Source: a virus (lineage: Duplodnaviria; Heunggongvirae; Uroviricota; Caudoviricetes). From it: 54,892 bases of DNA. The notes under the pieces are model-generated. The model made no database searches, was not told the origin of the DNA, and saw nothing but the letters and a program-made list of their open reading frames with translations. Both the position numbers and the translations under genes were made by a program. Below, in pieces: positions 16,058 to 18,371 of this stretch (position 1 is the stretch's first letter; every line of letters begins with the position of its first letter). The stretch lies in the IMG/VR virus record IMGVR_UViG_2568526312_000015; one strand, given 5' to 3'.

Positions 16058-16755
16058 CTTATTATCCTGCATTGTTAAAAACGGCAGAATCCTATGTGAC
16101 AACAATTAAACGATAGTTAAATGGATTGATGAAAATTAAAACTATATAGGTGTACGGTCAGACTATTGGAGGTAGTCAGGATTTGAATGTCAGTCTGTTG
16201 TCGGCATTCTGGCAATGCAATTTGGATAAAGCGGGGATTAAAAAGATAGAGGCGAGCCGGTCAGGTAGAAATGAATCAGGCTCAAAGTGAAGCGGAAAAG
16301 GTCTGTGGCACAAACTGATGCTGCCATAATTACAGCCTGATGACTTGTGGAATGAAACATGTTGAACCTCCTTAATTGATGTGATTCGAGTGAGGAAGGC
16401 ATTCTGTCCTTCTATAGTGTCCAGTAAATCAAACAGGAAGCTTGTCTCACGTGTGAGACAAGCCTCTCCATTAGCGAGTTGTATTGATTACAACTCTTCA
16501 AAGAATTCATTACTGGGTAGATGAAAATAGTTTCACGACGAATGGAGGAGGCTATGTCGGTAGCTTCTTCATTGGAGTACATATGCCACCACGAACCCCA
16601 AAAGCCTGCCGAGTTCGCGGCTGCCGCCATACCACGACTGACCCGTCAGGTTATTGCGAAAGCCACAAAAGCGAGGGCTGGAAGCAATACAAGCCAGGCC
16701 AGTCCCGACACCATGAACCGCCCCGGGTTTCCTGGAGAGTGTTTTATCTGTGAAC

Positions 16756-17646
16756 TCAGGCTGCCAGATCATCGTTTCCGATGGAAGCATAATAAGCTTT
16801 TTCTGCTTCTGCCGGAGGAGTATGGCCCAGCCTTCCCAGCAATCGTCGATTGTTATACCAGTCCACCCACGTTAGTGTGGCCAGTTCCACTTCTGCACGG
16901 TTTTTCCAGCTCTTACGGTGTATTACCTCCGCTTTGTAAAGACCATTGATGCTCTCAGCCATCGCGTTGTCATACGAGTCGCCTGTACTCCCTGTTGATG
17001 CCAGTAATCCGGCTTCTTTTAGTCGCTCCGTATAGGCCAGTGACACATACTGAGAGCCTTTATCGCTGTGATGGATGGTGCCAGACGGACGACGGGCCCA
17101 CAACGCCTGCTCCAGCGCATCCAGCACGAATGTCGTTTCCATAGACGATGAGACCCGCCACCCCACGATGTATCCGGCAAACACATCAATGATAAACGCC
17201 ACATAGACGAAGCCCTGCCATGTGCTGACGTAAGTAAAATCAGCCACCCACAGCTGGTCAGGTCGTTCTGCCACGAACTGACGGTTTACGCGGTCGCCTG
17301 CGGCAACGGCTTTCCGGCTGATGGTCGTACGGACCTTTTTACCCCGGAGAACACCGGCAAGTCCCATAACCGCCATGAGACGTGCCACTGTACATCTGGC
17401 CACCCTGATTCCTTCCCGTAACAACTGACGCCAGACTTTACGCACACCGTACACCTGATGATTTTCATCGTATACGCGCTGTATCTCTCTCTTCAGCCAG
17501 TCGTCGTGCTGCGCACGGGCACTGCGTTTATCCGGATGATGTCGCTGTTGCTGACAATGGTAATACGTTGACGGGGCAATATGCAGTTCGCTGCATACCG
17601 GTCCGACCCCGTACTGCTCACGCAGCTTATCCAGCAGTGGCATCAT
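16756..17646 (-). CDS. IS629-like transposase OrfB (DDE catalytic domain), probably made as an OrfAB fusion by -1 frameshifting
   Basis: 296-aa ORF with DDE integrase-core pattern; overlaps orfA at an A-rich stretch. Confidence 0.85.
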
Positions 17647-17969
17647 TTTTTCCAGAGGCGGTCGAACTCCGCCTTCGCAAAATAAGCGGAAGCCTGGCGA
17701 AGGATATCGTTACTGCGGCGCAGTTCACGATTTTCACGTTCCAGCTCTTTCAGACGCTGACGTTCAGCGCTGGTGAGCCCACCATCACCGCCCCCGGTAT
17801 CCCGCTCATGCTGGCGAACCCAGACACGCAGAGTCTCCGGCGTACAGCCAATCTTTGGGGCAATGGAACAAATTGCCGCCCACTGTGAGTCATATTCATC
17901 CTGACTTTCCAGAACCATACGAATCGCCCGCTGACGGACTTCGGGGGAAAAACGAGTATTTTTAGTCAT
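17643..17969 (-). CDS. IS629-like transposase OrfA (HTH)
   Basis: 108-aa ORF; IS3-family OrfA pattern with leucine-zipper-like C-terminus. Confidence 0.85.
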
Positions 17970-18371
17970 CCTGTTTACCTCTTTCTCAGGGAGTTTAGTC
18001 TCCAGGATTTCCGGGGCGGTTCACCAGCGCGGTTATGGTTCGAAATGGGATGTTATCCGGGGGCGTGTACTAAAGCGTGACAAAGGCCTGTGTCAGTTGT
18101 GTTTGCGTGCCGGTGTGGTGCGCGAGGCGAAAACCGTTGACCACATCATCCCTAAAGCGCATGGCGGCACTGATGCCGACAGCAATCTGCAGAGCCTGTG
18201 CTGGCCGTGTCATAAGGCGAAGACGGCCCGTGAACGGCTGAAGTAAGAACCAGTTCCCACTGCCAGAGGGGAGGGGCGGGTCAAATCCCTGTGACCTGAC
18301 GTCTTCCGGACTGCCCGCCCCATCGTTTTTTTATACCCGCGAAAAATGAAATTTAACCAGGAGTGCCGCAT

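Follow-up and report, generated by a model that had tools for sequence, protein, structure and literature searches.

IS629 interrupts the terminase-associated HNH gene in an SfV-like thrW prophage of Escherichia coli O157:H7

The window analyzed here is a stretch of 54,892 nt of tailed-phage DNA (IMG/VR record IMGVR_UViG_2568526312_000015) that is 99.99% identical to Escherichia coli O157:H7 strain MB9-1 and contains an SfV-like prophage in the tRNA-Thr gene thrW. Just upstream of the terminase genes of this prophage, a complete copy of the insertion sequence (IS) IS629 lies inside codon 44 of a gene for an HNH endonuclease of the terminase-associated family, and the gene is present as two pseudogene pieces. 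We assign a probability of about 0.8 to the reading as a whole, namely that IS629 split the HNH gene of the thrW prophage and that, by homology with related phages, the packaging of its DNA would suffer.

The split HNH gene and the inserted element

The HNH gene lies on the plus strand, starts with the ATG at 16583, and ends with the stop codon that closes at 18246. Its 5′ fragment (16583–16713) comprises codons 1–43 plus 2 nt and encodes the N-terminal zinc-ribbon part of the protein. The 3′ fragment (18027–18246, plus strand) begins with the third base of codon 44, extends through the stop codon, and holds the whole HNH catalytic core. When 16583–16713 is joined to 18027–18246, the resulting 351 nt form a single open frame of 116 amino acids (aa) plus the stop codon. 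The restored protein matches the Pfam HNH family (PF01844, E = 2.3e-16) over residues 66–112, a region containing the CQLC, DH, N, and CWPCH motifs. It is collinear over its full length with the HNH proteins of SfI (98.3% identity), SfV (orf53, 96.6%), ST64B (sb56), SfII, and SfIV (94.8% each), and phiP27, which itself has an HNH gene with 80% identity. The alignment with the HNH protein of Geobacillus phage GVE2 (PDB 5H0M, E = 1e-11) likewise runs end to end and takes in the N-terminal CxxxxC...CxxH zinc ribbon. In addition, residues 45–103 align with residues 6–69 of HK97 gp74 (38% identity, E = 3e-10). HK97 gp74 lacks the N-terminal zinc ribbon, whereas the window protein is of the ribbon-plus-HNH type, as is 5H0M; terminase-associated HNH groups with and without the ribbon have been described (PMC3592412). 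By the gp74 alignment, IS629 therefore interrupts the linker that joins the zinc ribbon to the catalytic core, and does so where gp74, which has no ribbon, starts.

The HNH genes of SfI, SfV (orf53), ST64B (sb56), SfII, and SfIV are uninterrupted, whereas that of the window is split by IS629. In the linear records of these five phages, which end at cos, the HNH gene comes last; in SfV, its end is 58 nt short of cos, and the gene order opens with terS. HK97 gp74 is likewise an HNH core encoded just upstream of cos and terS, with a homologous large terminase subunit (TerL) as its partner. The window shows the same order of HNH, cos, terS, terL, and HK97-type portal that characterizes terminase-associated HNH genes, but no intact, translatable gene of this kind, since it is split at codon 44. 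RefSeq annotates the locus accordingly as 'HNH endonuclease, missing C-terminus', 'IS3-like element IS1203 family transposase', and 'HNH endonuclease, missing N-terminus'.

Neither piece appears likely to yield a working enzyme. As it stands, the 5′ piece encodes a 56-aa peptide made of 43 native and 13 IS-derived residues, with a stop at 16753. Read backward, the frame of the 3′ piece stays open as far as 17935, within IS629, and from there onward it contains no in-frame ATG, GTG, or TTG before 18097, a position within the first CxxC zinc site of the HNH core. A functional product of the 3′ piece is therefore unlikely.

The element between the two fragments is a complete IS629 of exactly 1310 bp (16714–18023) with its transposase on the minus strand, and it is the sole copy within the window. 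It shows 100% identity over 1310 bp to depositor-labelled copies in CP-1639 ('insertion sequence:IS629'), VT2phi_272, and Stx2a_F349, and is therefore IS629 itself and not a relative. As expected for the IS3 family, it is about 1.3 kb long and its ends begin with TG and form imperfect repeats. The terminal inverted repeats are 25 nt long, at the orfB-distal end (16714–16738) and the orfA-proximal end (17999–18023), with 22 of 25 positions matching (88% complementary). Both ends agree over their first 13 nt only (TGAACCGCCCCGG), and base 14 differs. Two genes were identified from the open reading frame (ORF) list and Pfam, both on the minus strand: orfA (17643–17969, 108 aa, HTH_Tnp_1) and orfB (16756–17646, 296 aa, with an rve DDE integrase core and HTH_21). 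They overlap by 4 nt, and orfB is made by a programmed −1 frameshift from orfA. The ALIL pseudoknot that stimulates this frameshift in IS629 (Rfam RF01497) was found on the minus strand at 17572–17688, with a score of 121.5 bits against a gathering score of 50. The Prokaryotic Genome Annotation Pipeline (PGAP), which names the product 'IS3-like element IS1203 family transposase', joins the transposase coding sequence as a programmed frameshift and not as a pseudogene. One copy of the 3-bp target-site duplication, CCA, precedes the element (16711–16713), and the other lies directly outside its right end (18024–18026); empty sites elsewhere have a single CCA. In its inverted repeats, its orfA/orfB arrangement with the frameshift, and its 3-bp duplication, no difference from the named IS629 was found. 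Database searches returned thousands of IS copies that are 100% identical to the entire element, and many plasmid copies are identical as well. To judge from its sequence, the element is complete and apparently active.

Most of what the initial annotation had said about this locus holds. The IS629-like element of 1310 bp that it described is IS629 itself, the CCA duplication is where it should be, and the split gene is indeed an HNH endonuclease directly upstream of cos, terS, and terL, as the Pfam match and the homology of TerL to HK97 TerL attest. Its statement that removal of the IS and one CCA yields a continuous 116-aa frame is likewise borne out, and other genomes contain the predicted empty site letter for letter. 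The 14-nt inverted-repeat string that it gave, TGAACCGCCCCGGG, is exact at the left end only; at the right end, the sequence is ...CCGGA.

An isolated exact copy of the 13-mer TGAACCGCCCCGG occurs at 47686–47698, in an intergenic position of the P4-like element described below, and is also found in Sakai Sp2. It could be the relic of a solo IS end or a coincidence; the chance expectation of this 13-mer in the window is 0.01.

Empty sites and carriers of the insertion

The sequence predicted to have existed before the insertion (688 bp, consisting of the flanks and a single CCA) was searched against 5426 complete E. coli genomes. This empty site was found over 688 of 688 bp, with 100% identity and coverage, in at least 40 O157:H7 genomes, and all 40 of the matches listed are annotated as 'HNH endonuclease | phage terminase small subunit P27 family'. 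The comparison with uninterrupted homologues that had been proposed as a check of the insertion thus yields the precise empty site in sister O157:H7 genomes; strains 7784 and NE 1092-2 are further examples of such sisters. In strain FRIK2455, for which the context was inspected, the match lies at the same chromosomal locus and encodes an intact HNH endonuclease (WP_001135207.1). Apart from IS629, the FRIK2455 prophage differs from that of the window by one mismatch and one gap over the left 16.7 kb and by two mismatches and four gaps over the right 20.4 kb. The two prophages therefore differ essentially by IS629 only.

Both IS629 junctions are exactly present in 18 complete genomes, mostly from cattle, beef, and meat and, where the country was seen, from the USA and Japan. 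With strain 7409, the insertion is carried by 19 of the 5426 genomes. Strain 7409 has the same IS629 and the same right junction but has lost 327 bp flush with the left IS end (corresponding to 16387–16713 of the window). This deletion (locus 5940–6030) takes the 5′ HNH piece together with part of the upstream intergenic region, and the lesion is therefore irreversible in strain 7409.

The possibility that the HNH gene is a hot spot for insertion was considered and rejected, as the only other case, in the O39:NM strain F8704-2, is an independent event in the upstream intergenic region that leaves HNH intact. There (locus 3043–4734), an IS3-family element of about 95% identity lies in the same orientation, approximately 128 bp upstream of the gene. 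Precedents for the interruption itself are close at hand. In the Stx2a prophage F349, the same IS629 splits terL, which the depositor labelled a pseudogene, although both the prophage type and the gene are different; other O157 Shiga toxin (Stx) phages contain further IS629-interrupted genes that their depositors annotated as pseudogenes. Among the titles and abstracts of candidate papers, none was found that discusses the present insertion. Nevertheless, RefSeq annotates the split locus, and the feature is therefore already on record. The event is an ordinary IS629 insertion into an O157:H7 prophage gene, already annotated and with close precedents.

The packaging module and the expected consequence

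The inferred cos cut lies at 18304/18305, 58 nt past the HNH stop codon, 67 nt before terS, and 281 nt from IS629. The cos region (18272–18337, plus strand) was located by alignment with both ends of the SfV genome and is flanked by GGGGCGGG and CCCGCCCC with a T-tract. It is followed on the plus strand by terS of the P27 family (18372–18866, Pfam Terminase_4), by terL of the HK97 type (18863–20596, match to PDB 6Z6D with E = 1.2e-24), and by the genes for the portal, the HK97-family (S78) prohead protease, and the major capsid protein (20744–23805, from annotation and Pfam), all of which are open. The terS product showed no sequence match to any solved structure, and the basis for the label 'HK97-type' is therefore TerL, together with the portal, the protease, and the Pfam assignment of TerS. 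In HK97, TerS recognizes a site that lies to the terS side of the cut, at +15 to +29 (PMC11331095). Because this site is on the terS side and IS629 is 281 nt away from the cut, the packaging signals are most likely untouched, and damage to cos or a polar effect of IS629 was ruled out on these grounds. A genome too large to be packaged was also rejected, since the 39.6 kb of the prophage with IS629 falls within the 37.1–41.5 kb range of SfV, SfI, ST64B, SfII, and SfIV.

Two further features of the cos region were observed. GGGGCGGG and CCCGCCCC form inverted blocks on either side of the cut, with a T7 run after them, and this arrangement between HNH and terS resembles a terminator-like hairpin. 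On the terS side, positions +15 to +29 are rich in T, a feature that recalls the A-tract of the HK97 TerS site.

By homology with HK97-type systems, the prophage is probably unable to form infectious particles. A single copy of IS629 transposed into codon 44 of the HNH gene, with duplication of the CCA target. In HK97-type cos packaging, the HNH protein and TerL would together make the staggered cut at cos; Kala et al. (2014) reported gp74 to be essential in HK97. On induction, the prophage would be expected to replicate, build proheads and tails, and lyse the cell. Without the HNH protein, the cutting of cos and the maturation of the DNA would be poor or nil, and few or no infectious particles would be released. 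Indeed, HK97 gp74 promotes TerL cleavage at cos, an effect that has been reproduced in a reconstituted system (PMC9410871), and gp74 has been discussed as the possible source of one of the two staggered nicks (PMC11331095). In the lactococcal phage sk1, the adjacent HNH gene (encoding HrdP) is essential if infective virions are to form, but replication and the production of proteins go on without it (PMC12967558). In a blastn search at distant sensitivity, 18 of the 19 carrier chromosomes gave a single place resembling the HNH-cos-terS region, and the other carrier, M7638, gave two. A closely related helper copy is therefore absent from these 18 chromosomes. The packaging defect that the initial annotation had suggested is thus a reasonable deduction from homology, and the lysis, head, and tail genes that it had described as intact are all open in the window.

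The lesion may be reversible. Excision of IS629 in O157 is promoted by the IS-excision enhancer (IEE; PMC9943667), and the one carrier checked, OkiPb01686, has an uninterrupted iee gene with 100% identity to that of Sakai; because iee is intact there, rare precise excision of IS629 could restore the HNH gene. Simple excision, with the loss of IS629 and one CCA, would yield the wild-type HNH sequence, which is equal to that of the empty site. [quoted passage not shown] In contrast to that case, revertants would have no obvious selective advantage inside a lysogen, and excision at the HNH site is a prediction. The loss of IS-flanking DNA is another reported outcome of IEE action (PMC9397093), and the 327-bp deletion adjacent to the IS in strain 7409 is of this other kind. 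In OkiPb01686, iee is located at 1327933–1330293, and its protein is 100% identical to Sakai ECs_1305; the PGAP name for IEE is 'TOTE conflict system archaeo-eukaryotic primase domain-containing protein'.

Several points weigh against a packaging defect. The HNH requirement is transferred from HK97 (38% identity in the core), from S. aureus phages (cited in PMC12967558), and from sk1. The blastn search covered the chromosomes and would miss distant HNH genes. HK97 TerL and procapsids package linear DNA in vitro even when gp74 is absent (PMC9410871), and the defect could therefore be leaky. The prophage also has a second HNH-type gene, of the DUF968 type, at 10864–11853. Moreover, the 3′ fragment matches a complete gp74-like enzyme, as it starts exactly at the start of gp74 with a frame open back into IS629, and it may be weakly expressed from a non-canonical start. 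On these grounds, and given the two similar places in M7638, the prophage might be packaging-competent despite the insertion, because the TerL nuclease suffices, because another HNH protein acts in trans, or because the 3′ fragment is expressed at a low level. We regard this as unlikely. The 3′ frame offers no ATG, GTG, or TTG until it is already within the first CxxC site, and SfV keeps both orf45 (DUF968-type) and orf53 (the packaging HNH), which argues that the two types are not redundant. Furthermore, 18 of the 19 carriers have a single HNH-cos-terS-like place, and the HNH gene of sk1 is essential (PMC12967558).

It is possible, albeit somewhat doubtful, that the prophage was already dead and that the insertion was one neutral step in its decay, an explanation that is compatible with the preferred account of a packaging defect. 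A frameshifted small ORF and a truncated DNA methyltransferase gene are common to the carrier and its empty-site sister, the Sakai thrW prophage Sp1 has been reduced to a 10.6-kb remnant with all late genes lost, and the insertion has persisted unpurged in 19 genomes in the USA and Japan. However, both flagged pseudogenes are accessory and the attachment (att) sites are intact, and the genes for the integrase, excisionase, repressor, Cro, cII-like protein, O-like protein, Q, lysis, packaging, head, tail, and fibre functions are all open and in SfV order. The insertion might instead act together with IEE as a reversible switch, most cells being packaging-dead while rare excisants regain HNH and release phage. 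An intact iee in OkiPb01686, an intact IS629 transposase, which IEE needs, and the return to the wild-type gene upon precise loss of IS629 and one CCA are consistent with such a switch, as are the IS600/lacZ precedent and the IS-adjacent deletion of strain 7409, the latter being a reported IEE outcome (PMC9397093). Yet, no revertant was identified among the genomes compared, the empty-site strains being more simply explained as never hit; IEE-driven excision is of low frequency in the published case (PMC9397093), and nothing points to regulation or selective benefit. A switch is hence very unlikely, and its elaborated form, a population-level device in which a lysing, non-spreading prophage releases infectious SfV-like phage through rare excisants, is highly improbable. 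In a weaker variant, the gp74-type 3′ fragment may keep some activity without the zinc ribbon. Finally, an assembly artefact, in which an IS copy was misplaced into the HNH gene, has practically no likelihood. Its only basis is the general difficulty posed by many IS copies, of which the carrier chromosomes show signs in 13–22 search places, mostly presumed IS copies. Such an artefact is excluded because 18 independent complete assemblies have both junctions with a clean 3-bp duplication and the 19th shares the right junction.

The thrW prophage, its neighbors, and the meaning of the insertion

The prophage interrupted by IS629 occupies 1399–40981 (39.6 kb including the IS) in thrW, as delimited by 47-nt direct repeats, the MB9-1 annotation, and the SfV gene order. 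The att repeats are located at 1399–1445 and 40935–40981, and the integration is next to proA. From the left, the gene order is that of SfV: integrase and excisionase, repressor, cro, and cII-like genes, the O-like replication protein, and Q; then holin, endolysin, and Rz, with iss (bor) on the other strand, followed by HNH, cos, terS, and terL; and finally the portal, the HK97-family protease, the capsid, and a Mu-like contractile tail. The thrW att repeats, the lambdoid early region, the HK97-like head, and the Mu-like tail are thus those of an SfV-like temperate myovirus. The spans of the head and tail coding sequences equal those of SfV for most genes. Each of the other 45 coding sequences annotated in the MB9-1 prophage is open in the window and encodes a protein without amino-acid differences. 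In comparison with SfV, the window prophage is devoid of the gtr O-antigen genes and has pin, an invertible fibre segment, a GIY-YIG gene, and an AraC regulator at that end.

IS629 is the major lesion of the window prophage; the other flagged lesions are the frameshifted small ORF and the truncated methyltransferase. In the MB9-1 annotation, these accessory pseudogenes are placed at 4125–4444 (the frameshifted small ORF) and at 14008–14322 (a DNA methyltransferase gene without its N-terminus, the full-length counterpart of which is SfV orf48). Since both are shared with the empty-site sister, they are suggested to be older than the IS629 insertion. The DUF968 gene at 10864–11853, annotated as phrog_96 'HNH endonuclease', corresponds to SfV orf45; it is intact, encodes 329 aa, and is found just upstream of Q.

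Toward the right end, a Pin-invertible tail-fibre segment (35259–37161) is bounded by 20-nt inverted repeats, with pin at 37179–37778. The segment is flipped with respect to MB9-1 and oriented as in FRIK2455, and the fibre ORF (34975–35745) and tfaE are open. A P4-like satellite prophage equivalent to Sakai Sp2 follows in tandem at thrW (40982–53876), with a degenerate third att at 53851–53876. Its genes encode an integrase, an ABC-three-component system, ogr/delta, psu, sid-like, and icd-like products, and a primase, and Rfam matches within it include the C4 antisense RNA (49004–49091) and isrK (48858–48935).

Sakai Sp1 and Sp2 occupy the same thrW site and share with the window the same right-hand cargo (pin, GIY-YIG, and AraC) and the same tandem P4-like Sp2. 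However, Sakai Sp1 (locus 4043–14628) is a 10.6-kb remnant without late genes, whereas the window contains a full-length 39.6-kb prophage. Sp1 has a different lambdoid early region with pseudogenized int, O, and P, which is joined directly to the tail-fibre/pin/GIY-YIG/AraC end. Comparison of this remnant with the IS629-hit prophage indicates two courses of decay at the thrW locus, deletion in one lineage and IS insertion in the other.

The finding matters little beyond bookkeeping: in carriers, the thrW prophage is probably unable to package its DNA. The insertion marks one O157:H7 sub-lineage, represented by 19 of the 5426 complete E. coli genomes, and is usable as a lineage marker. It is also one more case of IS629 shaping the O157 prophage pool. 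Carriers and their empty-site sisters form a near-isogenic pair and thereby a natural test of the need for the HNH protein in SfV-type phages.

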